Positions 6,601-35,073 of a DNA stretch of 64,000 bases are shown in pieces. Made by a program: the position numbers and the translations under genes. The stretch's first letter is position 1. Every line of letters begins with the position of its first letter. This stretch comes from Bacteroidales bacterium (GTDB taxonomy: Bacteria > Bacteroidota > Bacteroidia > Bacteroidales > WCHB1-69): assembly GCA_045130275.1 (NCBI GenBank), contig JBGUPL010000013.1, positions 3,900 to 67,899 of the forward strand, in the 5' to 3' direction. Below the pieces are notes generated by a model. The model was not told the DNA's origin. It did not search any database and worked only from the letters and a program-made list of their open reading frames with translations.

Positions 6601-7873
6601 CGTTGAAACTGTCAAGCAAGTCGCACTGGCTCTTGGTGCAGATGTCAATGTCGCGCAGGAGGGTTTGGCTTAGAAAGCCCTCCAGAACCGCCTCATAACT
6701 CTCCATAAATTGGTCAATCAGCGTCTCGGAATATTCGTTGGAGCTGTATTCCGCTCTGATATGATATTTTTTGCCGACATAGAAAGCCATCAAATAAAGC
6801 GACACTCCCTCGTTGTGCTTGCGGAGCTGTATGGCCTCCATCGGTTTGCCCATCAGTTCGGTATAATCAAGTAAGAGGCCGTGCCATGCAAAGGTGGTGT
6901 TGATTTGCAGATTAAGGTCCGTCATCATGTCGGTATAGGAATAGAGATCGTGCTTGCGGCAGCCGATCATCTGTTCCTCGCCGGCTTTCAGGAAGTCTAG
7001 CACGGTGGTCTCTTCCGTGAACTTGGCGTAAACGGGCAACGTCTTCACAGTCATGCCAACGGAATGTTGGAATTTCCGTTCGGTGCGGCCGTTGAAGACC
7101 GTGGCGAACAGCGATTCATGCTCGTTGTTGTACTTGGCCAGCAGGAAGGAGTAGGCCGACGTGAAGAAAGTGCTTTTTTTGATGCCGTTGGTCTTGCAGA
7201 AAGCATCCACCCGATCCATGTCGGTGTCGAGAATGCGGAGTTTATTGGCGTCCGTGTGTTCGGGGATCTCCAAATCGGGCATAAGCTGGGTGAACGTGTC
7301 GCCGCAATCGAAGTTTTGGGCATACCACTGTTTGCCCTCTTCGAAGGCAGGTGTTTTGCGCATCTCAACTTCAGCAAGGGCAAGTTCCTGCATCGACATC
7401 TCCTCGGGGGCAAGCTCGACACCATTGTAAGCTTTTTCCACATCGTAAGTGATGATGTTGTACGAGGTGCCGTCGCTGATGATATGGTGCATGTCGAAGA
7501 GCCAATAAACATGTTCCTCGTCGCGCATCACTTTCGTATGAAACAGTCTGCCGCCAATGAGTTTGTAAGGCACGATGAATTTTTGCTTCTCGGCCTCGAT
7601 GTCCGTGAACGGCTCGACAGCAAGGCTGAAATCATCCCTTTCCTTAGTGTCAACGGATTGGACAGGTTCGCCTTCTTCATTCACCTCAATCCGGGTGAAA
7701 AAAACGGGATGCGCCTTTATCGTCGCCTCAATGGCGCGGCACAAACGGTCGGCATCGAGGCTGCCGTCAAAGACAAAAAGGAACGGGAGATTATAGAAGA
7801 CTTCATTCTCGTGCTCCATGCACTCGGCATAAATACCCAATTGCGATTGGGATAAAGGGGAAGTGTTTTTCAT
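605..7873 (-). CDS. Bimodular non-ribosomal peptide synthetase, C-A-T-C-A-T-R (terminal thioester reductase)
   Basis: 2422-aa ORF. C motifs: MHHIISDG (nt 7469-7489) and DVHHLIFDGGS. A motifs occur twice: LIYTSGSTGVPKG / MLYTSGSTGTPKG, GYGPSE / GYGPTE, YRTGD, GRxDxQVKIRGFRIEL and PLNQNQKVNxKALP. Carrier-protein serines sit in YVGLTSISA and FFDLGGTSLMV. The R domain has LLTGATGYLG (Rossmann) and YLHSK (YxxxK). Approximate domain coordinates in nt: C1 6580-7873, A1 5150-6575, T1 4888-5101, C2 3520-4800, A2 2068-3515, T2 1814-2047, R 608-1702. Confidence 0.95.
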   Translation of the reverse strand: MKNTSPLSQSQLGIYAECMEHENEVFYNLPFLFVFDGSLDADRLCRAIEATIKAHPVFFTRIEVNEEGEPVQSVDTKERDDFSLAVEPFTDIEAEKQKFIVPYKLIGGRLFHTKVMRDEEHVYWLFDMHHIISDGTSYNIITYDVEKAYNGVELAPEEMSMQELALAEVEMRKTPAFEEGKQWYAQNFDCGDTFTQLMPDLEIPEHTDANKLRILDTDMDRVDAFCKTNGIKKSTFFTSAYSFLLAKYNNEHESLFATVFNGRTERKFQHSVGMTVKTLPVYAKFTEETTVLDFLKAGEEQMIGCRKHDLYSYTDMMTDLNLQINTTFAWHGLLLDYTELMGKPMEAIQLRKHNEGVSLYLMAFYVGKKYHIRAEYSSNEYSETLIDQFMESYEAVLEGFLSQTLLRDIDICTKSQCDLLDSFNETDNPYDDTQTIVSLFRRQAKATPDKTAVVFKDKRFTYAEVDEISDRIASYIASKGLGLEDVVAILIARSEWMAIASLGVLKAGCAYQPLDPTYPKERLNFMMQDTASKLLIADEELCSILDEYKGEVLLTKDIKNLKESNAFDGPKPESLFTLIYTSGSTGVPKGCQLEHRNMVAFSHMHRHALHVEADSHIGAYASFGFDACLLELWPPLIVGATVYIIPEEIRLDLLALNDYFEQNGITHTFMTTQVARSFVNDIANHSLKAFITGGEKLADVTPPPYLFLNGYGPSESICYVTAFAVKEKLQNIPIGKAVENMHLYIMDACGHRLPVGAAGELWVNGPQVGRGYLNRPEKTAEAFVETPWGRCYRTGDIVRYLPDGNVQFVGRRDAQVKVRGFRIELTEVEAIIRQYPGIKDVTVQAFDEEGGGKFIAAYIVADEKIDIEALNNFIMDEKPPYMVPAVTMQIDRIPLNQNQKVNKKALPRPEKKAETVEESHVPMNILEEELHEIVAGIVGTKDFGVTTVLGYVGLTSISAIKLAVQLNKKYGITVDSKSLVKAGNIQTIENEILNKLLNAPATNQTVSNTDNSQLSTLNSQLNNVPLSYAQMGVYVDCMKQPTSTVYNIPTLIRLPKDTDVQLLEKSIETLIKAHPQFFVHFDSEAGEIVQIVDTTQPLALTKSQLSEAELEKYKVEFVRPFNLRQGPLYRMEIVTTERNVCLLADVHHLIFDGGSLDLFLNQLCDLMNGKEIEAEAISYAGFVVDEKAAESTSSYIEAKEFFNQRLGNVEGATEVSADLTNPLEQGTVSEVFCKMDFDAMEEFCKKNNLSPAHLTLAAVFYALSRFTNNEQICITTISNGRSDLRISNTTGMFVNTLALSAQIGNQKVMDFLNETSQHFDETLTHEKYPFAQIAADYDLSAEIMFAYQMGVIDQYLINGQKLEIESLELNIPKFRIAFYIQEKEGVPGVVVEYDNGRYSHELMQSLAQSVCTAAEAFIHHPEMALQQVSLLDAGQTALLDSFNQTDVPYDDTQTIVSLFRHQVEQTPDNLAVVYHDHKYTYREVDEISERIAGYIVAQGLKNEDIVSVLIPRCEWMAIVSLGVLKAGCAYQPLDPSYPAERLNFMMQDANAKLLIADEELRPIVDEYHGIVLLTKDIDKLPAVVPVKADITPSSLFIMLYTSGSTGTPKGCQLEHGNIVAFCHWYQRHYGLTAADKVAAYASYGFDACMMDLYPALTCGACVHIIGEDIRLNLPDLNNYFNTQGITHSFITTQVGYQFVTNVENHSLRCFAVGGEKLSALNPPTNYKMYNGYGPTECTIFTTNYWVKDYELDIPIGKPLDNLRLYIVDKQFNRLPPGAAGELWVSGPQVSRGYLNRPEKNAETYLKNPFSDDPKHARVYRTGDIVRYLPDGNIQFVGRKDGQVKIRGFRIELKEVEAVIRQFPGIKDATVQAFDYENGGKFIAAYIVSDQQVDIKALNDFIGERKPPYMIPASTMQIDRIPLNQNQKVNRKALPTPLMQASDREYVAPANDTEALFCRIFSEILAMDKIGANDSFFDLGGTSLMVTRVIIEADKAGMHVAYGDVFANATPRKLAALVSGNTVVATDDDDITKFDYSGINNLLSNNILDSFRKGECQSLGNVLLTGATGYLGIHILQELIQSDAENIYCLVRDKDMEAAEHRLKTLLFYYFESTYDELFGNRLHILLGDVTNDLTNLVQVKIDTVFNCAAVVKHFSEGTEIEDVNVGGAQRCVDLCLKTGARLVHISTYSTSGLNVNDTMAPDYVFTEQRLFDGQYLGNQYLHSKFLAERIVLQSIVDKGLSAKVIRVGNLAARTSDGEFQINFSTNSFMGRIKVFNMLGCFPYSLYENKVEFSPIDEVAHTIILLSSTPKDCCLFHSYNSHTQFLGDVLSGFNKLGTDIRLVEDEEYNSTVESAGNDPQKAKTLSSLLAYQDMAHGMKVSEVPISNLYTTQVLYRLGFKWSPTTWDYVDRMLSAISGLGFFD
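4813..4844. repeat. Heptanucleotide tandem array (GTTGAGA/GTTAAGA, about 4.5 units) inside the NRPS T1-C2 linker
   Basis: Direct reading gives gttgaga gttaaga gttgaga gttgaga gttg. On the coding strand this encodes NSQLSTLNSQLN. Confidence 0.9.
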
Positions 7874-9310: not shown

Positions 9311-9895
9311 TCACTTGATACTGTTGTCAAAACCAGTATGGAATTTTGCGATAGAGAAAACGTAATGTTGTGTATTGATGGTTTCGATCGAATATTTCTC
9401 TGAATTCATCAGAACATTTTTCATATTGTTGCGGATACCTTCGCCCGTGAGTTTCAACACAGCCTCTTTCCGGGTCCAGAGTGTCAGAAAAGCCTCATCG
9501 GTGTTTTGCGACGCCCGGATCCAATCCTGTTCCTCATCGTTCATAGTATAGTCGATCAATTCAGGGCTGACATGGCGCACAACCTCCACATCTGCGCCTA
9601 CAGGTTCGCTGTCTATGACGCATAGCGCCACTGTCTTGGAGTGGCTGAGACTGAAATGGATATCAGGGTGCTGCTCGAGAAAAGGTTTTCCGCTATCGGC
9701 CATGACGAAAACAGGATTCTCCTGGATGCCATGTTCCATCCAAAGCCCTTTCTTCAGCAGAAGATATGCCGCTAACGAGAGCTTTTGGTCGCGCTCATGC
9801 CGGAACCGCAGTGCCTCCTCGCGCCGCTGCACCGACACTTGAGCCATCGCGAAGTCGATGTCAAGCACATCCACCCGGTCATTGACATAGACCAT
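9311..9895 (-). CDS. Sfp-type 4'-phosphopantetheinyl transferase
   Basis: 194 aa with the PPTase motifs GKPF...FSLSHS, VGADVE and WTRKEAVLKLTGEG. Confidence 0.85.
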   Translation of the reverse strand: MVYVNDRVDVLDIDFAMAQVSVQRREEALRFRHERDQKLSLAAYLLLKKGLWMEHGIQENPVFVMADSGKPFLEQHPDIHFSLSHSKTVALCVIDSEPVGADVEVVRHVSPELIDYTMNDEEQDWIRASQNTDEAFLTLWTRKEAVLKLTGEGIRNNMKNVLMNSEKYSIETINTQHYVFSIAKFHTGFDNSIK

Positions 9896-24899: not shown

Positions 24900-26189
24900 A
24901 TGTTAGCAGAGAAGACATTAGAGAAGCTGCGCGTTTTGGCGGAGTCGGCGAAGTACGATGTGTCGTGCTCGTCGAGCGGCACCGTGCGCGGCGGCAAGAA
25001 GGGCATGGTGGGCAACACCGTGGGCGGCGTGGGCATCTGCCACTCTTTTGCCGATGACGGTCGCTGCATCTCGCTGCTGAAGGTGATGCTGACCAACCAC
25101 TGCATGTACGACTGCGCCTATTGCGTCAACCGGCGCTCCAACGACATCAAACGCGCCACCCTCTCCGTGTCGGAATTGGAGGAGATCACGATGGAGTTCT
25201 ACCGCCGCAACTACATCGAAGGGCTGTTCCTTTCCAGCGGTGTGGTCCGCAACCCCGACTACACGATGGAGCGGCTCACCGCCATCGTCCGCGACCTCCG
25301 GCTCATCCATCGTTTCAACGGCTACATCCACCTGAAAGCCATCCCGGGCGCCTCGCAGGAACTGCTCAACGAGGCCGGCCGCTACGCCGACCGTATGAGC
25401 GTGAACATCGAAATACCCCGCGAGGAGTCGCTGAAGATGTTGGCACCGGAAAAAGACCACCGCAGTGTCTTCCAACCCATGAAACTCATCCAGCAAGGCG
25501 TGCTCGAGAACAAGGAGGACCGCAAACACTACCGTCACGCGCCCCGCTTCGTGCCCGCCGGACAATCGACCCAGATGATCGTGGGCGCCACCAAGGATAC
25601 CGACCGCGAGATCCTCACCATGTCGTCGCTGCTCTACGGTCAGCCCTCCATGCGCCGCGTCTATTATTCGGGCTACGTGAGTGTCAACACGTTCGACTCG
25701 CGCCTGCCCGTGCTCAAACAGCCGCCACTCGTGCGCGAAAACCGCCTCTACCAGGCCGACTGGCTGCTCCGCTTCTACCACTTCAAGGTGGACGAATTGG
25801 TGGACGACAGCCACGCGAACCTCGACTTGGAGATCGACCCGAAGTTGGCGTGGGCGTTGCGGCATCCCGAATTCTTCCCGGTCGATATCAACACGGCAGA
25901 TTACGAAATGCTGCTGCGCGTGCCCGGCCTCGGCACCAAGTCGGCGTGGCTCATCGTCAACTCCCGCCGTTTCAACCGGTTGACCACCTTCGACCTCAAG
26001 AAGATGGGCGTGGTGATGAAGAAGGCGAAATACTTCATCACCTGCCACGAGCTCGGCGCCTCCAACCTGCAGCCCCTCCTCGGCATCAACGAGCTGACGC
26101 CCGAACGGCTGCGCCCGCTGCTCGTCTCCAAGGCTGAACAGAAACTCGCCGCGAAGGAGGCGCAGTTGTCGTTGGAGTTTGTAGAGTGA
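24900..26189 (+). CDS. Radical SAM protein of the putative DNA modification/repair type (normally paired with a DUF4130/TIGR03915-type partner)
   Basis: 429 aa with the N-terminal AKYDVSCSSSG motif, a CMYDCAYC (Cx3Cx2C) cluster and a C-terminal helix-hairpin-helix-like region (LLRVPGLGTKSA). Confidence 0.8.
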   Translation: MLAEKTLEKLRVLAESAKYDVSCSSSGTVRGGKKGMVGNTVGGVGICHSFADDGRCISLLKVMLTNHCMYDCAYCVNRRSNDIKRATLSVSELEEITMEFYRRNYIEGLFLSSGVVRNPDYTMERLTAIVRDLRLIHRFNGYIHLKAIPGASQELLNEAGRYADRMSVNIEIPREESLKMLAPEKDHRSVFQPMKLIQQGVLENKEDRKHYRHAPRFVPAGQSTQMIVGATKDTDREILTMSSLLYGQPSMRRVYYSGYVSVNTFDSRLPVLKQPPLVRENRLYQADWLLRFYHFKVDELVDDSHANLDLEIDPKLAWALRHPEFFPVDINTADYEMLLRVPGLGTKSAWLIVNSRRFNRLTTFDLKKMGVVMKKAKYFITCHELGASNLQPLLGINELTPERLRPLLVSKAEQKLAAKEAQLSLEFVE

Positions 26190-26300
26190 CGTTGGATATA
26201 GAAAGGGGTTCGTGCCTCCTGCACGGGCGGAATCCGCAATGTCCAACCATCACGCCGGATAATGGCCATGCTCATATACCTACCGTCCAACGCCTCTCCT

Positions 26301-26315
26301 CGTGTCGAAGACACG
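26301..26315. repeat. Palindrome P1, CGTGTCgaaGACACG
   Basis: Perfect 6-bp arms. Same family as 26388-26407 and 27448-27470. Confidence 0.8.
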
Positions 26316-26327
26316 ATATTTTAGAAA

Positions 26328-26364
26328 CCCCACACGGCACTCACTTCGTTCGTTTCGTGTGGGG
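26328..26364. other. Strong hairpin (9-bp GC-rich stem ccccacacg / cgtgtgggg)
   Basis: Read directly, inside a GC-rich non-coding stretch of about 250 nt. Confidence 0.7.
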
Positions 26365-26387
26365 TTGGGCGTGCGCACACGGAATCA

Positions 26388-26407
26388 GCGTGTCGGAGAC
26401 ACGCAAC
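26388..26407. repeat. Palindrome P3, GCGTGTCggaGACACGCAAC: left boundary of the AT-rich cassette
   Basis: Matches 27451-27470 at 17 of 20 positions; all three differences are in the central loop triplet. Confidence 0.85.
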
Positions 26408-26605
26408 TGCACACGCCGCCCCCAGTCGGTTCGAGATTAAATACGGATACTTGAGAACACCTCTTCGTTGGTGTGGAAGGTGGCTTCACCGGCCTCTTTT
26501 CGTATATTTTTAGAGATAACGTCATAATATACAATGGTTTATTATGATATTATTCCTTTTATTAGAAAAAAATCAGAGAGAAGTGTTTTGTGATTAAAAA
26601 TTGTG

Positions 26606-26613
26606 TATCTTTG
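26606..26613 (+). promoter_or_regulatory. Candidate -7 box (TATCTTTG) for the cassette gene
   Basis: Exact consensus match 67 nt upstream of ATG 26680. Confidence 0.5.
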
Positions 26614-26679
26614 CAAAGTTTTATCAAACCAAAAATTTAAAAAAAATAAATATGGGAACAGATTAGTTATCAGTACGAT

Positions 26680-27435
26680 ATGACAGGCAATACAAAAGAA
26701 ACATTATTGTTTTGGCTTGCGATTTTGAGTGGCATATCCTCAATTGCAGGCTTTTTTGTAGCTTTGAGTTCAGATCAAAGCAAGGTTGTTATTGTGTTGA
26801 TTGCCATCATCGTCTTTCTTGTAGCATTGCTGCTTTCAGTTTGGTATGCCATTCACAAAATTGTCCACAAAGAATTTGACAGGGGATACATAAAGCTTTC
26901 GTTCTTTACAAAATGTGAATACGTCAACCAAAATCACATTATCTATGATGGTTATCGTCTGATTCAATCCAAGCGAGCCTTTTTACCAAGTATTAAATGG
27001 GCATTCAAATGGTCAGGCTCCAAACAGCCGATTATTAGCTCAACCCTGCAGGATTGCGATGGTAAAATAATTGAAAACACTTCGAATGACTATGACCACG
27101 TTGTTCTGAAATTTAAGAAAGCACTTTCTTACAATGAATCCGCAGTAGTTCATTTCCATGCCAACATGGATGATGTGGACAATACTGCACAACCATATCT
27201 GGATGTCAGGATTGAAGAACCTATCAGTGTCGTTGATTTCCGTGTAATATTGGCATATAAAGACGCTCAATTTTCAGAAAGGGCACAATTCATGCGAAAG
27301 CCTATCAACAGCGGAATCCCGACGGAATATCAAATACTTGAAACGGTTTCATTCAATTCGTATTCCAAAAGCTACGAATATGTTTTGACAAATCCGGAAG
27401 TCGGATATTTCTACCGGTTGCAGTGGGTGAAATAA
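26680..27435 (+). CDS. Hypothetical membrane protein with two N-terminal TM helices and a beta-rich C-terminal domain of about 185 aa
   Basis: 251-aa ORF that is clearly more AT-rich than its flanks. TM helices: LLFWLAILSGISSIAGFFVAL and VVIVLIAIIVFLVALLLSVWYAI. No recognisable catalytic motif. Confidence 0.7.
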   Translation: MTGNTKETLLFWLAILSGISSIAGFFVALSSDQSKVVIVLIAIIVFLVALLLSVWYAIHKIVHKEFDRGYIKLSFFTKCEYVNQNHIIYDGYRLIQSKRAFLPSIKWAFKWSGSKQPIISSTLQDCDGKIIENTSNDYDHVVLKFKKALSYNESAVVHFHANMDDVDNTAQPYLDVRIEEPISVVDFRVILAYKDAQFSERAQFMRKPINSGIPTEYQILETVSFNSYSKSYEYVLTNPEVGYFYRLQWVK

Positions 27436-27447
27436 CTTGTTGAACTT

Positions 27448-27470
27448 GTTGCGTGTCTTCGACACGCAAC
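27448..27470. repeat. Palindrome P4, GTTGCGTGTCttcGACACGCAAC: right boundary of the cassette and likely terminator
   Basis: Perfect 10-bp arms, 13 nt after the cassette gene stop. Confidence 0.85.
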
Positions 27471-27563
27471 TATTATATGTGCACATCTTCTATTGTTCTT
27501 TATGTTCTAGAGTGCAAAAATCGTAAGTATTTTCATATTCCGAAGAAATATTTCTAAAAGTTG

Positions 27564-27571
27564 TATCTTTG
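27564..27571 (+). promoter_or_regulatory. Candidate -7 box (TATCTTTG) for the DUF4130-type gene
   Basis: Exact consensus match 133 nt upstream of ATG 27704. The leader in between is the TAACC array. Confidence 0.45.
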
Positions 27572-27618
27572 CAACCAGAAAGATCTCCCGATTTCTTCTT
27601 CCTCTCGGTACTACCCAC

Positions 27619-27699
27619 CATTAACCTTCTAACCATCTAACCCATAACCTTTTAACCTTCTAACCCCCTAACCTTCTAACCCTCTAACCTTCTAACCAT
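27619..27699. repeat. Octamer array (ten TAACC cores, mostly TTCTAACC)
   Basis: TAACC recurs at 8-nt spacing (once at 7) from 27622 to 27697. The plus strand has no G across the array, which ends 4 nt before the ATG. Confidence 0.9.
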
Positions 27700-27703
27700 A
27701 AAA

Positions 27704-28489
27704 ATGACCTACTACACCTTCGACAGCACCTTAGACGGCCTACTCACGGCGGTCTTCGAGGCGTTTGCCCTGCGCGAACGGCCAGAAAAACTGTTGTCGG
27801 AAGGCGAGACCGTGTCCTTGTTCTGCGACCGCCTCTACCAAGTGTCCACCGACGAAGAGAAGGCACGCCGAGTATGGAAAGGATTAGAGAAACGACTGTC
27901 GAAAGAAGCACTCAAAATGCTTTATGTCAGCTGGTTATCAGAACTTCCGGAACTCAACAACGCACTATTCCAATATATCTGCAAGGTATTCCGGCAACCG
28001 GAAGGGGAAACGAGCATCGAGCGGAACTTCGCCGACCCGGACGTGCTCGCCGTGACCAACATCGCCCGCAAGGTGCTGCACGAACAGCTGCGGATGAAAC
28101 AGTTCATCCGTTTCCAGAAGGCCAAGGACGGCACCTACCTGGCTGTTGTCGCGCCCGACCACAACGTGCTGCCGCTCATCATCGACCATTTCGCCGACCG
28201 GTTCAACGACCAGCCGTGGCTCATCTACGACGCCAAGCGGCATTACGGGTATTACTACGACGGCACGGGAGCCCCTTCCCGCATCACCTTCGCCGACGAG
28301 TCGGCCGTGACGTTCAACCTCGCCAACGGCCGTCTGAACGACGACGTGCTAAGCGACGATGACCAACTTTTGCAGGAGCTATGGCGCACCTACTTCAAAG
28401 CTATCTGCATCCGCGAGCGCCTGAACCCGCGCAAACAGCTTCAGGATATGCCGCGAAGATATTGGAAGTACTTGACAGAAAAGCAGTAA
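27704..28489 (+). CDS. DUF4130/TIGR03915-type putative DNA metabolism protein, the usual partner of the radical SAM gene at 24900
   Basis: 261 aa. The N-terminus MTYYTFDSTLDGLLTAVFEAF and the C-terminus ...WRTYFKAICIRERLNPRKQLQDMPRRYWKYLTE are typical of this family as I recall it. Confidence 0.65.
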   Translation: MTYYTFDSTLDGLLTAVFEAFALRERPEKLLSEGETVSLFCDRLYQVSTDEEKARRVWKGLEKRLSKEALKMLYVSWLSELPELNNALFQYICKVFRQPEGETSIERNFADPDVLAVTNIARKVLHEQLRMKQFIRFQKAKDGTYLAVVAPDHNVLPLIIDHFADRFNDQPWLIYDAKRHYGYYYDGTGAPSRITFADESAVTFNLANGRLNDDVLSDDDQLLQELWRTYFKAICIRERLNPRKQLQDMPRRYWKYLTEKQ

Positions 28490-28506: not shown

Positions 28507-30255
28507 CTAATCAATATTCTTGATTAAATCCATCACATATATCACCACCTCATACAGAACTCCGTGACGGAGTCCCGGTACTGCATTGACATTCATGGTG
28601 AAGGTGTTTCCATCGACAAAACAGACCATATCGCGGATAGGCATGGCGGCCTCCGGACCGAGCAAGGCGACAAACGCATTGAAATCAACTTGTGCGAAAA
28701 CAGCATGGTTTAAGAACTCTTTCGGCCATTCGCGCTCAAAAGGCTGCGAAAGTGTTTCTATTCCCTTGAGACTCTTGGTGTAGAACATCAGCCCGTCCTT
28801 CACCAACACGCAGGAAGAGTCTTCTTTCACGATTTGCGTGAAAGTCTCATAATCCATCTCTTTCTTGTTGGTTATAATCACATAGGCATCCCAACCATCT
28901 ATCTTTTTGTGATTCAGTGTTTTCATATTAATCGTGGAATCCTCTGGATCCACAGCTGAAGCGAACGACAATCCGAGCATTTCAAAAGTGTCAAAATCTT
29001 CAGGAAATTGGGGTGACGACATCGGTTCCTCCGATGCATTCTCCTTTTTCTTCTCGTCCATCGCTTTTTTACGCGCATGGAAAGTGGAGTCTGTAATGTG
29101 GTTGCTGACAGCCACATAACGTTCCAAGGCTCCGCGCACTTGTTCAGGATGGTCTATGAGGGTGACCGCTTGCATCTGGTATTCCGTTGCGGAGAGAGCT
29201 AACGTGAACACAAACGGTTTGTTCAACAACGGGCAAAGTTCACGCCACTGCGGAAGTGTTGTCATGTAGGGTTTCGCAAGGTCACCGTAACCTTCTATCG
29301 AACTGGCAGCCAAAACCAGATAGTCGCCCGACACGTATGGCATTAACCGCCTCAACGCCTCGGGGGATGACTTCAAGGCTTGGAATTCCGGAATGGGGGT
29401 GCGTTGATGGATCTCGCTTACAGCGGTAATACGGTCATGAAAAACATCTCCTCGTGAAAACAACTCCATATCCAGCTTAGCGAAAGCATCTTGAACATCT
29501 TTGGAAGTGGGGAAATAAACAGCCACTGCGTTGCTGAGGGTACGGATAAGTGGGTTGTTGGAACGATAGGCGGTATAAGAATCCCAACCCTTGGTCAGCA
29601 TGGTGGTCGCCAACTCACTTGAAGCAAATTTTGAACTGCTGATCCGGTTCCATAATTGCATAGGTGTTTCCTTATTTTTGTAGAAAGACTCCAACATAAG
29701 ATCAATGTCGTTGGTGTCCGGAATGGTCGAGTTGAACACGGGACTTGAATAGATGGCGTTCATGTCGTTGAGCAACGCAAGACAGGCGACATCTTCCGTG
29801 CAGATTACAGCTGCGCTTATGCTTTCTTCATCAAAAAGCATACAACGGAATTTCCGGCCAGAAGGATCCGTCATCGTCTCGAACGGCGGCACCGATTTGT
29901 CAAGAGAACGGATTGTTTTCTCGAAGTTCTTCTCATTATTCAACGGCAGGATGATGTATCGGGAATCAACCATGGCTGCCGTCGCGGTGAAATCAACGCC
30001 CATCTTACTGTCTTTCTTTATCCAACTCTGCACCAGCTTTTTGGAGAACTTTAGACTGTCATATAGTGGCTTAAGGAAGTTTTCACGATGCATGGACTCC
30101 AATTCAAATGCCCGCGCCAAAGTGTCGAGGTTCACCATGGATATCGAATAGCTGCTGTCAGGCACATAGTTGAGCACTCGCAGATGTTTCGGAACTTGCG
30201 CAAACGCGACCGACACCATAAATAACATAATGATTGTTAATATTTTACGCTTCAT
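28507..30255 (-). CDS. Hypothetical secreted protein of unknown function
   Basis: Long ORF. The start is set at MKRKILTIIMLFMVSVAFA|Q (signal peptide). No motif recognised. Confidence 0.7.
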   Translation of the reverse strand: MKRKILTIIMLFMVSVAFAQVPKHLRVLNYVPDSSYSISMVNLDTLARAFELESMHRENFLKPLYDSLKFSKKLVQSWIKKDSKMGVDFTATAAMVDSRYIILPLNNEKNFEKTIRSLDKSVPPFETMTDPSGRKFRCMLFDEESISAAVICTEDVACLALLNDMNAIYSSPVFNSTIPDTNDIDLMLESFYKNKETPMQLWNRISSSKFASSELATTMLTKGWDSYTAYRSNNPLIRTLSNAVAVYFPTSKDVQDAFAKLDMELFSRGDVFHDRITAVSEIHQRTPIPEFQALKSSPEALRRLMPYVSGDYLVLAASSIEGYGDLAKPYMTTLPQWRELCPLLNKPFVFTLALSATEYQMQAVTLIDHPEQVRGALERYVAVSNHITDSTFHARKKAMDEKKKENASEEPMSSPQFPEDFDTFEMLGLSFASAVDPEDSTINMKTLNHKKIDGWDAYVIITNKKEMDYETFTQIVKEDSSCVLVKDGLMFYTKSLKGIETLSQPFEREWPKEFLNHAVFAQVDFNAFVALLGPEAAMPIRDMVCFVDGNTFTMNVNAVPGLRHGVLYEVVIYVMDLIKNID

Positions 30256-30344
30256 ATTACAAAAAATTAATTTATAGACAAACAATAGATTTTTCAACTC
30301 TTATGACACAAATAATATAAAAGGTTGCACCTTAAAAATAATCT

Positions 30345-30372
30345 TTCTTCATTCTACATTCTTCATTCTACA
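30345..30372. repeat. 14-nt direct repeat x2 (ttcttcattctaca)
   Basis: Two exact copies; the second contains the sbcC stop codon. Confidence 0.85.
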
Positions 30373-33300
30373 TTATGAATTGTCACCTCGCTCGTTCCGT
30401 GGCTCACCGGCTGCACGATGATTTTGGTCGGGATTTTGTCAGCAAGGACATCCAAATGGCTGATGATGCCGATACTGCAATGTACGATGTGGTGCAATTG
30501 CTGGAGGGTGTTGACCACACTGTCGCACAATGTCCCGTCAAGTTGGCTGATGCCCTCGTCGATGAAGAGGAAATCGGAGGAGATGCCTTGCAGGGCGAGG
30601 TTGGAAAGGCCGAGCGCGAGCGCGATTGAAATCAAGAAACTTTCGCCGCCGGAGACCATCTCGACAGGACGTGGCGCGTCACCCAAGTACTTGTCTTTCA
30701 CCAAGATCATAAGTTCGCGGCCCGCACCGGTGAGTTCGTAACGGTCGGAGAGCATCCCGAGGAAATAGTTGGTGTTGTCCAGGAGTTTCTGCAGGATGAA
30801 ACTCTGCGCAATCTTGCGGAAGGTCTTGCCGGTGCTGTCGCCGAAGACGTTGTTGAGTCGCTCCCACTGCCGCACCTGTTGTTGCAAGGCATCCAACTTC
30901 GCCAAGGTATCGGCATATTTCCGTTTGTTGTCGGCATCCTGCCGTAAAATCTGCTGAATCTGTCCTATTTGCTGTGACTTCTGCGTCTTCAGATCGTTTT
31001 TTGTGCGGATTTGCTGCTCAATATCGGAAAGTGGCTCCTCTTCACCCATCTCCGGCTTCGACTCCTCATGTTTCCGCAGCGTTTCCTGCGCCTGCTGCCA
31101 TTTGCCGTATGCGGTATGCGCTACTTCCTGCACCGTTTTCAGCTGCTCACGAAGCTGGGCAATCATCTCAGCGGATATGCCAGCCAATTCCGACAACATC
31201 TGTTCTGAGATTTCCGAATGCTGACGATAATAGTCTTGCAAAAAAACTTCCGTTTGGGACATCTTCTTGGACAATTCCGACTGCTTTTGCGCCAGCACCA
31301 CACAGTTTTCGGCCAACTGCATCCATTCTTCGGCCAATTGTTCGCACGGTTTGGCAACTTCAGAAGCGGGGAATGGGAACAACGCCGACACTTTTTTCTC
31401 GAAAGTATGCATTTGTTGCAGTTCAAGCTCTCTTTTTTCGGCAGAATCCTGCCGGTTTCTTAACACCTCCTTGCATTTTTCGTAAGCTTTGGCTTCCCTG
31501 TCAAGTGTTTCGGCTGTTTCGGGCGGATTTTCTTCCCATTTTGGGTATATTTCACTGAAAAATGCGGCCAATTCCGCTTTGGAAGTCTCAATATTTTGGT
31601 CAGTTTGCGTTTTTTGAGCTTGAAGACTGTCCAACGACTTCTGTGCGGAAACGAGATTCACTTCCGCCTGATGCCTGTCAGCCGTCAGTTCCTCCATCCG
31701 CTTGCCCTGCTGCGAAAGCAACTCCGTTTTCTCCGTCAATTGCTTGTTGAGTTGAATAGCCGCCTGAATTCGGCAAGCGATTTCCTTAGCAGCCGAATCA
31801 GCAGTAAAAATCTGGTTTTCAATTTGTTCGTCAATGGTTTTGTCCATTGTGATATTCAACGACTTACAGGTTTCTCCCAAAGCCGTCAAGGCGGTTTTCT
31901 GTTGCTGGGATTTATTTTGGAGATCCTTTTGTGCGATCTCGAATCCAGCCTGCGCACGACTCAGGTTGGTGGCGGCGACATCCATCGCGTTCTTGGCGTC
32001 CGTCAAGGCAACGTTCGCCTCAGAAAGTTGTTGTTGCAACATCTTGACGCTTTGCTCAACCGCTTCATTGGTAAGCAGTTGTTCCACTTTTTGCCCGCAA
32101 ACGGGACAAGTGTCGCCCACTTGGAGTCCCGCGCGGATTTGCTTGGCGAAGTCGTTGACGCTCTGCGCCGCGGAATCGTAGCATTTCTGGGCCGTTTCTT
32201 GCGCCGCCTTCGCCGACGAATAACGCCGCTGCGCTTCCGCGAATTGCTGGCCAAGTTCCTGAACATTCTGCTGTTGCGTCGTCACCGCATTTTTCAACGC
32301 GGCAATCGCATCTTGCTGATTTCTAAGTTCCTGAACCGACTTTCGGATGTTCGCCAACTGGTTCAACAGATTCGTCTTCTCCGTTTGCTGGCGGGTGAGT
32401 TCCGCCAAATCGAACTGCTGTGTCTGCGACTTCAACGTTGCCGCTTCTTGCGTGAGTTGGGTGATGATTTCCTGCTGCTGACCTATTTCTCCCTTTTTTT
32501 TCTCCAAAGCCTCCCCATATTGCCCAATAGAAACAGTTGTGGCCTTGATTTTGTCCTCTGTCTGCGATAAATCTTGCTGGAAACGGGCAAATTGACCGAG
32601 TTTTTCGCACAGGACAGGAGCTTCAGCATACACATCCACCTTATATGCCTGGGTTTTCTGCTCGTTTTGGAGTTTTTCAATTTCAGCATGTAACAACTCG
32701 AGTTGTTGCCGTTCATACTGCAATCCCGATGTAAGTAATTGATATTCTGACTTATACTTTTTTTCTGACGCTTGAAGAAGATCAACATCTTGACGAAGTT
32801 GCACCATTTCTGCGTAAGTTTTGCGCACCTTTTCAGTCTTCTCCCAACGCTGTACAGTTTCCTGCGTACGAAGATGCGCTTCGGATTTTGTTGCGGCATC
32901 GGCTGATACCCATTGAGCCTCAGAAGTTCTTACATTTTCTTGATATTGAGCCAGTTGATTAATCCAATTGGATTTATTTGTCAACACCTTCAATTCTTCG
33001 TCAATCTGCTTGTTTTCCGCCTCTATATCTTGTATATTCTGCTGATATTCAGTAATTTGCTCCTCATTTAGGCGTACAATGTTCTCATTCTGGCTGTTGA
33101 GTTGCTCATATGCTCTCTTTTGGGCGTTGTATTTCTCATAAATCCTCCGACCAATCTCCGAAAAGATACTCGTATCGGTCAGCTTTTCAAGGATTTCCGC
33201 CTTGGCGTTCTGGTCGCTTTTCATGAACTTGGTGAACTCACCCTGCGCTAGCATCGTGGTGCGGCAGAATTGATCGTAGGTCAGCCCCGTGACCGTAATC

Positions 33301-33758
33301 ACCTGCTGTTCAACTTCTTTCACCTTATTCCAAACTCCATTTTCGGAAGTCAGCGACCATTCCACATTATTCAGATTTCCATTGCGGTTGATAGAGAATG
33401 CGGTTTTAGCGGTATATGTAACACTATCATTTCCAACGAATTGCAGACTACACCAACCATCTTTCGTGCCACGTTTGAGATACTGCCGCAGGTCGTTGAT
33501 GGCGATGCCTTTGTTCTTGTCGCTGAACTGGAATTCGGGGTCGGAGTACTGATTCTCTTTCTTTTCGGCGATGCTTTGCAGCCGCGGCGTTTTGCAGAAC
33601 AACGCCATGCAGATCGCATCGAGAATAGTGCTCTTGCCCGCACCCGAGGGACCCCAAATCATGAAAATATGCTGATTCTCGGGCATCAGATGCTCAAAAT
33701 CGACAACCGCTTCCGCAATGGAGTTGATATTTCGTATATCTAATCGTTTGAATTTCAT
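30363..33758 (-). CDS. sbcC: SbcC/Rad50-like ATPase of the SbcCD nuclease
   Basis: 1131 aa with Walker A GPSGAGKST, a long coiled-coil carrying the CPVCGQ zinc hook, and C-terminal SGGE...LFIDEG. Confidence 0.9.
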   Translation of the reverse strand: MKFKRLDIRNINSIAEAVVDFEHLMPENQHIFMIWGPSGAGKSTILDAICMALFCKTPRLQSIAEKKENQYSDPEFQFSDKNKGIAINDLRQYLKRGTKDGWCSLQFVGNDSVTYTAKTAFSINRNGNLNNVEWSLTSENGVWNKVKEVEQQVITVTGLTYDQFCRTTMLAQGEFTKFMKSDQNAKAEILEKLTDTSIFSEIGRRIYEKYNAQKRAYEQLNSQNENIVRLNEEQITEYQQNIQDIEAENKQIDEELKVLTNKSNWINQLAQYQENVRTSEAQWVSADAATKSEAHLRTQETVQRWEKTEKVRKTYAEMVQLRQDVDLLQASEKKYKSEYQLLTSGLQYERQQLELLHAEIEKLQNEQKTQAYKVDVYAEAPVLCEKLGQFARFQQDLSQTEDKIKATTVSIGQYGEALEKKKGEIGQQQEIITQLTQEAATLKSQTQQFDLAELTRQQTEKTNLLNQLANIRKSVQELRNQQDAIAALKNAVTTQQQNVQELGQQFAEAQRRYSSAKAAQETAQKCYDSAAQSVNDFAKQIRAGLQVGDTCPVCGQKVEQLLTNEAVEQSVKMLQQQLSEANVALTDAKNAMDVAATNLSRAQAGFEIAQKDLQNKSQQQKTALTALGETCKSLNITMDKTIDEQIENQIFTADSAAKEIACRIQAAIQLNKQLTEKTELLSQQGKRMEELTADRHQAEVNLVSAQKSLDSLQAQKTQTDQNIETSKAELAAFFSEIYPKWEENPPETAETLDREAKAYEKCKEVLRNRQDSAEKRELELQQMHTFEKKVSALFPFPASEVAKPCEQLAEEWMQLAENCVVLAQKQSELSKKMSQTEVFLQDYYRQHSEISEQMLSELAGISAEMIAQLREQLKTVQEVAHTAYGKWQQAQETLRKHEESKPEMGEEEPLSDIEQQIRTKNDLKTQKSQQIGQIQQILRQDADNKRKYADTLAKLDALQQQVRQWERLNNVFGDSTGKTFRKIAQSFILQKLLDNTNYFLGMLSDRYELTGAGRELMILVKDKYLGDAPRPVEMVSGGESFLISIALALGLSNLALQGISSDFLFIDEGISQLDGTLCDSVVNTLQQLHHIVHCSIGIISHLDVLADKIPTKIIVQPVSHGTSEVTIHNVE

Positions 33759-33778
33759 TATTTAGTGGTTGGTGAACA

Positions 33779-33794
33779 GTTTAAGGTTTAAGGT
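33779..33794. repeat. Heptamer repeat (GTTTAAG x2.3) in the sbcD-sbcC spacer
   Basis: Read directly. Confidence 0.6.
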
Positions 33795-33811
33795 AATAAA
33801 AATTTGAAACA

Positions 33812-33872
33812 CATTCCTTGAGCAGTCCCAGTAGGGACAAGAGCTCGGTAGAATTTTGAAATGAATTCGCAA
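33812..33872 (+). repeat. Copy B of the conserved intergenic hairpin element (see 24809-24863)
   Basis: CATTCCTTgagCAGTCCCagtaGGGACAAGAGCTCGGTA...ATTCGCAA, in the sbcD-sbcC spacer. Confidence 0.8.
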
Positions 33873-33885
33873 CCATGGTTAGTAG

Positions 33886-35073
33886 CTATCGTGATTGTTC
33901 CTCCCTAACCTCTTGTATGACAGAATGTAACAATTCTTTCAGCGTATCGTCCATATCGGTTTGGAGGGTGTCGGTGAAGTAGCGTTCGGCAATCTCGAAG
34001 GGGTCTTTTTCGCGGAATTCCGACAGGTTGAAGTCCGGTTTTTCCACAGCAGTCTTGCCTTCGGAGGTGGGACGCGAGACTTTGTAGTCGCAATAGAGGA
34101 GGTCTTCGCCGCGTTCCAAAATGCCGCGTATTCGGTTCTCCGTGTCGGAGGGCAGCCGCTCGGCCGACAAGACATTGACCTGCACATAGCCCTGTCGTTC
34201 AGGAAGATGCGTCTCCAAATAGTCCAAAGCCTCTTCCAACGGCTGCGGTTCGGCGGGAATCATATAGAATTTTCGCAAGGGTTCCAGATCGATCGTTTCT
34301 ATCTTTGGCATATCCCCGTGATTATCAATGGTGACCATCGTCACTGAGTGCGAAAACTGCTCTTTGAAGTTGAGCTGCACCGGACTGCCGCAGTAGCGCG
34401 CCTTGCCATTCGGCAGGGTCTGCGGTGTGTGGATATGCCCTAGCGCAAAATAGTCGTAATAATCATCTATATCACAGAGATTCATACTGTTAATACCACC
34501 AACTATGTCACGGCCGTTGAACGAGGTGCTCTCATGCGCGCTGAAGATGGCGTTGCCAATTGTAGTATGTCCCATCAGAATTACAGGCAAATTCCGGGTG
34601 TTTCGAGCACGGATTTCGGTCAGCACAATATTGTATAGATCATTTTGATAATCAGGCACATAAGGAATAGCCGCAATCCAGCCTTTGTCGGGAATCTCGA
34701 CAATGTGTTTGTCGAGAAGATATTGGTCGTCAGCACGTTCCGCCGCGCCGACAAAGTAGGCGTTCACGCGCCGCCACACCCCGGACATACTCTCCACTCG
34801 CGAACTACTGTCGTGGTTGCCGGCCGTGAGGACAACCGGCATTTCCGGTGCCAAGTCGCAGATTCTAAGCAGATTGTCGGAAAGGAAACGCATGGAACTG
34901 TTGCTGGGCGCGTTCTTGTCGTAAAGGTCGCCGCTGACGATAAGCGCGTCAGGGCGCTCGCGCACAATGATATCGCAGAGTTGATCTAAGAAGCATTGGT
35001 GTTCTTCCTGCCTATCGTAGTGGAAGTTAAGCACCTGTCCGATGTGCCAGTCTGAAGTGTGTACTATTTTCAT
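33886..35073 (-). CDS. sbcD: SbcD/Mre11-like nuclease subunit
   Basis: Starts MKIVHTSDWHIGQ, with GDLYD, GNHD and GH motifs. The start is set at ATG 35073, downstream of the -7 box. Confidence 0.9.
   Translation of the reverse strand: MKIVHTSDWHIGQVLNFHYDRQEEHQCFLDQLCDIIVRERPDALIVSGDLYDKNAPSNSSMRFLSDNLLRICDLAPEMPVVLTAGNHDSSSRVESMSGVWRRVNAYFVGAAERADDQYLLDKHIVEIPDKGWIAAIPYVPDYQNDLYNIVLTEIRARNTRNLPVILMGHTTIGNAIFSAHESTSFNGRDIVGGINSMNLCDIDDYYDYFALGHIHTPQTLPNGKARYCGSPVQLNFKEQFSHSVTMVTIDNHGDMPKIETIDLEPLRKFYMIPAEPQPLEEALDYLETHLPERQGYVQVNVLSAERLPSDTENRIRGILERGEDLLYCDYKVSRPTSEGKTAVEKPDFNLSEFREKDPFEIAERYFTDTLQTDMDDTLKELLHSVIQEVREEQSR

Follow-up and report, generated by a model that had tools for sequence, protein, structure and literature searches.

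Introduction

Integron-type platforms are poorly characterised in Bacteroidales, a dominant order of gut and rumen, where conjugative transposons, phages and loci of the invertible or shufflon kind are credited with most movement of accessory genes. The attC sites of integrons are about 57 to 141 nt long and are built as R''-L''...L'-R' (RYYYAAC...GTTRRRY), with AAC/GTT at the inner ends of the R stem and with extrahelical bases. In Neisseria, the minimal mobile element is a fixed slot between conserved genes that holds different whole-gene cassettes in each strain, and the neisserial intergenic mosaic elements (NIME/dRS3) are mosaics of repeats bounded by 20-nt inverted repeats at variable sites, for which exchange via homologous recombination in the flanks is possible. 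The ends of IS200/IS605 elements (IS608) are distinct hairpins read on one strand. Clusters of attC sites without an integrase are known as CALIN (PMC4889954), and the 28-bp dif-like sites (11-bp XerC arm, 6-bp centre, 11-bp XerD arm) bound the pdif modules of Acinetobacter, which are shuffled between replicons with no dedicated adjoining recombinase, a housekeeping enzyme being presumed (PMC6449649). Here, we report a hypervariable cassette array in a 64,000-nt stretch of DNA (the window) from a Bacteroidales bacterium (assembly GCA_045130275.1, contig JBGUPL010000013.1, positions 3,900 to 67,899, forward strand), where two DNA-repair genes, a radical-SAM gene of the TIGR03916 family and its partner of the TIGR03915/DUF4130 family, enclose a spacer that holds a gene of 251 aa (cas251) bracketed by short palindromes. 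The palindrome (P) is the outward-facing first hairpin of a 72- to 94-nt two-hairpin repeat, the PH unit, whose second hairpin is called H; this hotspot gene may mark an integron-like way of swapping accessory genes.

The locus is a repeat-bounded cassette array that lacks the defining features of attC, dif, repetitive extragenic palindromic (REP) and IS200/IS605 sequences. It appears to work most like integron/CALIN arrays and Acinetobacter dif modules, with a partial resemblance to REPINs and bacterial interspersed mosaic elements (BIMEs) and to the Neisseria elements. With integron/CALIN arrays it shares tandem small cassettes of foreign composition, mostly with a single gene or a toxin-antitoxin pair, a repeated hairpin at the boundary, and an occupied site that equals the empty site plus a cassette and one site; no integrase was found in the window ORFs scanned. 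It differs in that P, at 17 to 23 nt within the two-hairpin unit, is a perfect palindrome without extrahelical bases and with GTT/AAC outermost, in that the sites alternate (GGA left and TCC right of each cassette), in its self-promoted cassettes (TAnnTTTG) and missing attI/Pc platform, and in its Bacteroidales host and location inside the spacer of a two-gene operon. As with dif modules, modules (toxin-antitoxin pairs included) lie between inversely oriented short palindromic sites, and cas251, the F16/17 pair and a sigma-factor trio each occur in several contexts; unlike dif, P has identical arms of 7 to 10 bp around a 3-nt centre, shows no dif similarity, is coupled to H and is chromosomal rather than plasmid-borne. 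REPs, BIMEs and REPINs are likewise short, GC-rich palindromes outside genes, conserved in structure and often placed just after stop codons, and they commonly form inverted pairs with linkers, an arrangement that the junction element between cassettes resembles, but REPs occur in tens to hundreds of copies over invariant intergenic regions, whereas PH units are rare and lie in variable slots, and no REP-associated tyrosine transposase (RAYT) was found in the window open reading frames (ORFs) scanned or beside PH units in the loci examined. The Neisseria elements belong to another repeat family and phylum, and several junctions here fall exactly at the repeat, not in the flanks. Like IS200/IS605, the insert lies directly 3' of a short specific sequence beside a hairpin, has hairpin ends and leaves no target duplication, but it encodes only a predicted membrane protein, with no tnpA or tnpB, and its ends are inverted copies. 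A miniature inverted-repeat transposable element or composite transposon was rejected, as the empty sites retain one P with the adjoining H and there is no duplication beyond the site itself.

Materials and Methods

All coordinates are window positions. The comparison set held 80 related loci (numbered with the prefix L) from rumen and gut Bacteroidales and Prevotella, mostly metagenome-assembled genomes, and both flank genes were located in 64 of them. Composition baselines were taken from 32 window genes (cassette ORF excluded), and 38 of the 40 window ORFs of at least 90 aa were scanned. PH units were gathered by regular expression and alignment from the loci compared, giving 78 distinct variants, and a covariance model (R1) was built for the unit and run on the window with filters off. 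Covariation was tested on 50 diverse PH units against 500 shuffles plus slid controls, junction classes were obtained by sorting 20 nt either side of 132 P sites, and the significance of patterns in the window was assessed with 100 shuffles. For the survey of cassette neighbours, 429 ORFs within 2.5 kb of palindromes were clustered and representatives scanned with Pfam. Cutoffs were 343.5 bits for TIGR03916 and 112 bits for TIGR03915.

Results

The window keeps the gene order and co-orientation of the TIGR03916/TIGR03915 pair, with a spacer of 1514 nt. Across the 64 loci, the gap was 0 nt in 23, 5 to 101 nt in 20, 153 to 181 nt in 3, 472 nt in 1 and 1.1 to 6.0 kb in 17; the genes thus overlap or lie no more than about 100 nt apart in 43 of 64 relatives, in line with the first-pass annotation, which had held them to be normally adjacent. 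Most of the large gaps (13 of 17) fall in the clade nearest the window (radical-SAM protein 91 to 97% identical), where 13 of 15 scorable loci are expanded. Expanded spacers carry one to eight small low-GC genes from at least 33 families, recurring in varied orders and combinations, and the cassette set in this slot differs among 17 relatives; two loci with the window's hflX synteny (L026 and L027) have entirely different cassettes. The cargo includes an antitoxin and PIN pair (five arrays), an MNT/HepT pair, RhuM-family genes, a helix-turn-helix and 159-aa pair, an FGE-sulfatase-like lipoprotein, an AAA_14/DUF4143 ATPase and several uncharacterised secreted or membrane proteins. Within one clade of uncultured rumen Bacteroidales, shuffled cassettes make this spacer a hypervariable array. 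What had been read as a lone single-gene insertion spanning 26408-27447 is one slot of a multi-cassette array. Measured against the ancestral spacer, the accessory DNA extends from 26190 to about 27617 and takes in the left palindromes, which are part of the repeat element. The features of the region are as follows.

24900-26189, plus strand: TIGR03916 radical-SAM gene, left conserved flank (NCBIfam TIGR03916, 638.4 bits; Pfam Radical_SAM and HHH_3)
26190-27617, unstranded: entire accessory block filling the radical-SAM/DUF4130 spacer, absent from relatives with overlapping genes or only an 8-mer tract; modules shared piecemeal with other arrays
26211-26225, unstranded: degenerate palindrome B, CGTGCCtccTGCACG, start of the junction element; aligns to gtttCGTGCCTAyGGCACGggg of L001, L014, L017 and L030; weak covariance-model match
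26300-26316, unstranded: palindrome C, TCGTGTCgaaGACACGA, kept as tcctCGTGTCGrAGACACGatattt in L001, L014, L017 and L030
26323-26413, minus strand: complete PH unit, with H at 26326-26366 (11-bp arms, 19-nt loop), a linker, and P at 26388-26407 facing the cassette
26388-26407, unstranded: left P, with the insertion point directly after 26407 (junction alignment against empty sites)
26408-27470, plus strand: 1063-nt insert comprising leader, predicted promoter, 251-aa gene and one P site (empty-site comparison; start-to-start spacing 1063)
26421-26496, plus strand: 76-nt conserved leader module, shared at 100% identity with L030 15809-15884, a stretch that is not followed by the 251-aa gene
26604-26616, plus strand: putative cassette promoter, a Bacteroidetes-type -7 box (TAnnTTTG) in TGTATCTTTGCAA (sequence match)
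26680-27435, plus strand: cassette gene cas251, 251 aa (ORF)
27448-27470, unstranded: right palindrome, a hybrid P site; left arm and loop cassette-borne, right arm and GCAAC resident
27471-27603, plus strand: terminal module with a putative promoter box (27562-27574) for the DUF4130 gene; 92.5 to 94% identical in L019, L023, L030, L130, L138 and L171
27618-27703, plus strand: ancestral-spacer remnant, an 8-nt tandem repeat (TAACCTTC x 9.6); a similar tract makes up the empty spacers of L016, L021 and L031
27704-28489, plus strand: TIGR03915/DUF4130 gene, right conserved flank (TIGR03915, 255.6 bits; PF13566, 176 bits)

All of the features on which the first-pass annotation had built (the palindromes, a third relative at 26301, boxes at 26606 and 27564, and the ORF at 26680-27435) were recovered. 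The left palindrome, GCGTGTCggaGACACGCAAC (= GCGTGTCGGAGACACGCAAC; 26388-26407), has the loop GGA and ends in GCAAC; the right one, GTTGCGTGTCttcGACACGCAAC (= GTTGCGTGTCTTCGACACGCAAC; 27448-27470), is a perfect 10+3+10 palindrome with the loop TTC (TCC-type); the third, CGTGTCGAAGACACG (CGTGTCgaaGACACG; 26301-26315), lies within palindrome C. Near-identical palindromes therefore do bracket the gene, but they are not simple direct copies, their 3-nt loops being oppositely oriented. The motif CGTGTCnnnGACACG (up to one mismatch) occurs at three sites in the window against 0.24 expected, a number reached in 0 of 100 shuffles, and the observed count of the 20-mer pattern was likewise matched in 0 of 100; every palindrome site of the 64 kb is confined to one 1.2-kb stretch. 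The TATCTTTG boxes at 26606 and 27564 each lie inside the identical 13-mer TGTATCTTTGCAA (26604 and 27562).

Empty sites define the ends of the insert. In six contigs (L019, L130, L138, L171, L164 and L207), hairpin H and a single palindrome, ...cagCGTGTCGGAGACACGcaac, run without a break into tattatatgtgcacatcttc..., which in the window comes after the right palindrome, such that ...GACACGCAAC continues straight into TATTATATGTGCACATC. In the window and in L023, 1063 nt separate these same left and right sequences, and the insert starts directly after ...GCAAC and ends with ...GCAAC. Insertion at a hairpin site, as first proposed, is thus borne out to the nucleotide by single-palindrome sites in all six contigs, whereas the alternative then offered, duplication of that site, is not, there being no target-site duplication: the loop of the right palindrome (TCC in L023, TTC in the window) is inverted relative to the left (GGA). 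In L017 and L014, gttgCGTGTCTCCGACACAccgcccc... and a second hairpin come after the same gene end and make up a full PH unit, while the window and L023 keep only the palindrome. From the inverted loop and this comparison, the right palindrome of the window is therefore read as a hybrid of cassette-borne and resident sequence. Exactly this structure results when a donor with one site and the resident site undergo a single crossover 3' of the loop; it does not result from simple target duplication.

Partners reassort at P throughout the arrays. The 132 P sites fall into 42 left classes and 54 right classes in 69 combinations, with single linker classes joining 8, 7 and 9 different right-hand sequences, and the DUF4130 promoter module is joined at P to four different left partners. 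At several junctions, the P site of about 20 nt is the sole sequence common to the partners. Homology breakpoints between arrays lie within 15 nt of a P centre in 46 of 355 cases against 9.5 expected (about fivefold), a crude count in which breakpoints are not independent.

The PH unit reads tAGTTGCGTGTCtccGACACGC, a linker of 25 to 28 nt, CCCCACAC, a loop of 5 to 25 nt, and GTGTGGGGTTATT, with a P stem of 7 to 10 bp and a 3-nt loop. Both stems show compensatory changes (in P, CGTGTC/GACACG to CGTGCC/GGCACG or CGTCTC/GAGACG; in H, CCCCACAC/GTGTGGGG to CCCCATAC/GTATGGGG or CACCACAC/GTGTGGTG). Among the 50 units tested, 96% of cells were paired (24 to 62% in slid controls), and double changes occurred in 6 of 15 pairs against 1.3 in shuffles (0/500). 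The layout is H-P, cassette, P-H, with P always facing the cassette, and two facing PH units with the B and C palindromes between them make up a GC-rich junction element of about 270 nt between cassettes; the window holds one complete PH unit (66.5 bits, E 3.8e-21; DNA folding gives both hairpins), palindromes B and C, and, at 27448-27470, the collapsed site. TTATT follows the GC-rich hairpin H, and P often begins 1 to 20 nt past a stop codon. In half of the PH units, the orientation is wrong for terminating any adjacent gene. Rfam returned only sub-threshold, chance-level matches on 26100-27800 (Gut-1, E 0.45; miRNA, E 1.2). A GC-rich ORF of 75 to 84 aa over the junction element (26186-26440) was set aside as a gene, being composed of the hairpins themselves. 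Loops were also seen in both orientations: the 19-nt H loop flips between near-identical units (window 26337-26355; L019 10325-10416; L097 11304-11393 against L210 30-119), and one and the same cassette end has the P loop TCC in L030 but GGA in L020. An assembly artefact is unlikely for this flip-flop because the arms are only 9 to 11 bp.

The repeat keeps to variable regions. The related loci (1.40 Mb) contain 35 matches to the palindrome family, of which 31 lie in arrays, which make up 3.7% of the DNA, and two of the other four lie directly beside arrays. With the covariance model (1.29 Mb from 80 genomes), every match above 50 bits was inside or directly beside an array; the approximately 1.2 Mb of flanks gave one, directly downstream of DUF4130 in L045, Prevotella relatives with adjacent genes gave none above 50 bits, and the 64-kb window gave no second strong PH unit beyond 26323-26413. 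This confinement, with one strong copy in the window, shows that the repeat is neither a general terminator nor a high-copy REP; the ubiquitous terminator against which the first-pass annotation had set its proposal is thus not what the motif is. Further palindrome copies, for which it had suggested a search, exist at other variable loci of relatives and metagenomes; the window has none outside the 1.2-kb stretch. Scanning metagenomes for the 20-mer yielded many rumen-type contigs that carry the GGA/TCC-loop version, some representing this hotspot and others different loci. A second slot follows a conserved 333-aa gene; there, PH units flank either a trio of extracytoplasmic function (ECF) sigma and anti-sigma genes or one or two paralogous TonB_C genes, in either orientation (L135, L142, L155, L198, L199, L136, L107 and L134), and the slot adjoins an ATPase-rich, defence-island-like stretch. 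Further PH-flanked sites hold an AAA_14/DUF4143 ATPase, a toxin-antitoxin pair beside a cas251 copy, and a DNA methylase. Matches to a pattern of 17 specified bases in high-GC metagenomes (soil and similar) had random loops and were treated as chance. The 1.5-kb block had no match in phage or plasmid collections, nor the 20-mer in viral contigs, and literature on TIGR03916/DUF4130, Bacteroidetes integrons/CALIN, Prevotella palindromes or cassettes, and RAYT/REPIN yielded no description of the repeat or hotspot. In five contigs (L094, L103, L115, L137 and L187), a PH unit abuts a 75-aa ORF that resembles, on reading by eye, the N terminus of an IS4-type transposase; there the repeat may have inserted into, or truncated, an insertion sequence.

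The cassette gene is foreign by composition. The cas251 ORF has a GC content of 0.385 and a third-position GC (GC3) of 0.40, against 0.519 ± 0.029 and 0.660 ± 0.067 across the remaining 32 genes of the window (z = -4.6 and -3.9), and the radical-SAM and DUF4130 genes stand at 0.607 and 0.562; the AT-richness noted earlier by eye thus holds up statistically. Between the window and L017, L001, L023 and L014, the cassette (26421-27447) is 94 to 96.6% identical in nucleotide sequence, whereas in the same genome pairs the radical-SAM gene is 86 to 88% and the DUF4130 gene 77 to 83.5% identical; the cassette therefore appears to have spread more recently than its hosts diverged. Its composition, its greater likeness between genomes than that of the flanking genes and its presence in unrelated contexts all agree with the foreign cassette first proposed. 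We found 47 homologs of cas251 at 42 to 98% identity, none of them named. The gene occupies the same slot in L001 to L003, L014, L017, L023 and several metagenome contigs, alongside other cassettes, while remoter homologs (83%, 67% and 48% identity) lie in unrelated neighbourhoods, including beside AAA_14/DUF4143, AbiEii, GmrSD or DndB genes. In L004 to L008, nucleotide homology to the window is restricted to the promoter box and ORF (26601 or 26639 to 27435); in L009 to L012 (the 48% copies), none was detected. The L004 copy is 79% identical in nucleotide sequence, with homology beginning at 26601, and the predicted promoter therefore travels with the ORF. A perfect hairpin with a 26-bp stem of 8-mers (GTAATnCC) lies at 6714-6769 of L004/L005, after a PF05635/zinc-ribbon gene that adjoins the 83%-identical cas251 copy in a genome without PH units. 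The protein had no match in Pfam, NCBIfam, PADLOC, PHROGs or PDB sequence/profile searches; the AlphaFold model (pLDDT 86.9) predicts two N-terminal transmembrane helices and a 12-strand beta-sandwich, for which Foldseek gave generic beta-sandwich matches only (M1 aminopeptidase N-domain and OST subunit, TM 0.37 to 0.43).

Identity of the radical-SAM gene to relatives is mosaic (91 to 97% over the last ~240 nt, 82 to 90% upstream), and its similarity does not follow synteny, the top matches being without upstream hflX and the syntenic L026 and L027 only 92 to 93% identical (protein). This suggests, at the level of sequence comparison, that recombination tracts reach into the radical-SAM flank. 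The gene has a GC content of 0.607 and a GC3 of 0.865 (z about +3 against its surroundings). In L016, L021 and L031, the spacer of 153 to 181 nt is made up of a tandem tract with an 8-nt period, (TAACCnnn)n, and carries no -7 box between the genes. In the window, the -7 box of the terminal module (27562-27574) lies about 130 nt upstream of the DUF4130 start, and the last module carries one in many arrays. The separated DUF4130 gene may be expressed from this array-borne promoter box (a consensus match only), so that the operon may have been split and then re-promoted by the incoming array, whose terminal module supplies the new putative promoter box.

Discussion

We propose that an integrase-less array of accessory cassettes would have colonised the radical-SAM/DUF4130 spacer in one clade of uncultured rumen Bacteroidales, with cassettes gained, lost and reshuffled through recombination at P. 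For the window, recombination would have taken place between a donor carrying a single P (loop TCC) and the resident P (loop GGA), with a crossover 3' of the loop within GACACGCAAC(T). The resident P would thereby stay intact on the left, and the right side would receive a hybrid that forms a perfect palindrome; the terminal module would then give a new promoter box to the separated DUF4130 gene. We count for exchange at P the empty and occupied sites compared base by base in six independent contigs, the partners that reassort at P, the breakpoint enrichment and the covariation of the stems, together with the array-confined palindromes, the differing cassette sets, a cargo typical of cassette arrays, the higher identity of the cassette than of its flanking genes and the H-P, cassette, P-H layout at other loci. 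Whether an enzyme that is encoded elsewhere and specific for a site or structure catalyses such exchange, like attC x attC or Xer/dif-module recombination, rather than the exchange being passive, we judge to be close to an even call. A wider proposal is offered tentatively and is doubtful as a whole: the PH unit might be the recombination site of an undescribed Bacteroidales cassette-capture system, a functional analogue of integrons and dif modules, in which a trans-encoded enzyme would read the folded two-hairpin site, exchange DNA where P ends in its GCAAC foot and so assemble, in operon spacers of the chromosome, arrays of cassettes for defence, toxin-antitoxin pairs and surface proteins that bring their own promoters, with the loop flip-flop as a by-product.

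Several findings weigh against enzymatic exchange at P. None of the 38 window ORFs scanned, core genes such as mraZ-murE-mraY, hflX, sbcCD, recQ and uvrC, encodes a recombinase, integrase, transposase or Y1/HUH protein (no Phage_integrase match), as the first-pass annotation had also seen for transposases and integrases; no recombinase, integrase or transposase was found beside PH units in about 2.2 Mb of loci, where Pfam gave cargo-type genes only. No circular cassette contig was found, the short contigs L213 to L215, which carry the gene, being ordinary fragments without terminal overlap. The 3-nt spacer of P is too short for a classical tyrosine-recombinase core. Distant cas251 copies (L004 to L012) move without PH units, and the arrays of L024 to L027, L029 and L045 hold cassettes without P sites, so cassettes can occupy the slot without P. 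The two ends of the insert share 11 nt in direct orientation, GACACGCAACT, which would also permit slippage deletion. Truly independent events at P are few, many contigs may inherit one event, and the 50 covariation units were collected by sequence pattern, which limits the variation seen in them.

The strongest competing explanation, possible although less favoured, is that passive structured repeats (REP-, BIME- or NIME-like, for example transcript-end or insulator hairpins) combine with homologous recombination, in the flanks or in the 70- to 90-nt PH units, and with palindrome-stimulated slippage between short direct repeats. On this view, the repeats would have built up in accessory DNA, and cassettes would turn over in the manner of the Neisseria minimal mobile elements: recombination in the conserved flanks, or in PH units serving as portable homology, would bring in entire alleles of the slot, and slippage would produce the deletions. 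The flank genes are conserved enough for homologous recombination, and the mosaic end of the radical-SAM gene, its similarity out of step with synteny, the arrays without any P site and the missing nearby enzyme all agree with this. So do the TTATT after the GC-rich H, the position of P shortly after stop codons, the terminator-like calls of a simple scan at 27448 and 26300, and the 11-nt identity at the insert ends. Yet the ~20 nt of P shared at several junctions are below the usual length for efficient RecA exchange, and the window cassette has no H on its right, so homologous recombination between flanking PH units cannot have made that junction. Slippage would account for loss but not for the first insertion, half of the units are misoriented for terminating neighbours, and a repeat with one strong match in the 64-kb window is no general terminator and is of low copy number, unlike REPs.

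Improbable, by comparison, is single-strand transposition by an HUH (Y1) enzyme from elsewhere (IS200/IS605 TnpA or RAYT-like), which would recognise P or H and cut 3' of GCAAC, with the cassette as a non-autonomous passenger. It would explain why the insert lies directly 3' of a hairpin and pentanucleotide and ends with the same pair without target duplication; compensatory stem changes are expected of a folded single strand, and the loop flip-flop suggests hairpin intermediates. However, no Y1/HUH protein occurs in the window ORFs scanned or beside the PH units examined, the ends are inverted copies, unlike the distinct one-strand hairpins of IS200/IS605, the low copy number is unlike REP/RAYT systems, and viral, phage and plasmid collections gave no match. 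The HUH/IS200 or integron-like mechanism first suggested is not borne out here: the window ORFs scanned encode no such enzyme, and the site lacks attC geometry.

Ordinary gene-end terminators that bracket the gene by coincidence are disfavoured and very improbable: the terminator scan does match 27448 and 26300, but the 20-mer is common to unrelated cassettes, empty sites break exactly there, breakpoints are enriched about fivefold and the PH unit is absent from the window's other transcription-unit ends. Least credible of all is a classical integron remnant with the palindromes as attC and IntI encoded elsewhere, given a P of 17 to 23 nt against 57 to 141 nt for attC, GTT/AAC at the outer stem ends, alternating orientation and cassette-owned promoter boxes. 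Only its form, an array of small cassettes (many toxin-antitoxin or uncharacterised) with a repeated, imperfectly conserved hairpin at cassette 3' ends and no nearby integrase, fits the definition of CALIN (PMC4889954).

The junction element, compact and defined by its sequence, marks swappable cassettes with predicted promoters of their own at several chromosomal slots, and the 20-nt palindrome ending in GCAAC, with empty and occupied alleles known, offers a concrete substrate for finding the enzyme that would be responsible. If exchange is passive, the locus would still be a clean hotspot of the minimal-mobile-element type outside Neisseria. The PH unit provides a searchable signature for accessory and defence genes in uncultured rumen Bacteroidales, and the DUF4130 gene a natural case in which an operon may have been split and then re-promoted by an incoming array.

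Additional observations in the window

After the DUF4130 gene lies a convergent gene of 582/596 aa (28507-30297, minus strand), without a Pfam or PADLOC match, which is only 60 to 64% identical in L026/L027, whose hflX is 96% identical; it would therefore be a fast-evolving or replaced neighbour. Genes resembling sbcC (1131 aa, SMC/LmuB-type profile matches) and sbcD (Metallophos) follow at 30363-35073 (minus strand), 2 to 7 kb from the slot; SbcCD is the classical hairpin and palindrome nuclease.

Tandem repeats with a period of 6 to 8 nt fill many short spacers between co-directional genes of this genome (10317-10380, 19015-19074, 27622-27697, 40642-40735, 41375-41535, 53291-53371, 55159-55199 and 56948-57005), for example TTGCCTG x9, TTAAAGG x8.6, ACCATTA x7, TGGCTGT x10, AATCACT x11.6 and TAACCTTC x9.6, and the "empty" radical-SAM/DUF4130 spacers of relatives are one such tract. 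We know of no described function for these spacer tracts. Near the start of the window, an ORF of 2422 aa (605-7873, minus strand) beside a 4'-phosphopantetheinyl transferase gene (9311-9895) is probably of the nonribosomal peptide synthetase/polyketide synthase type.

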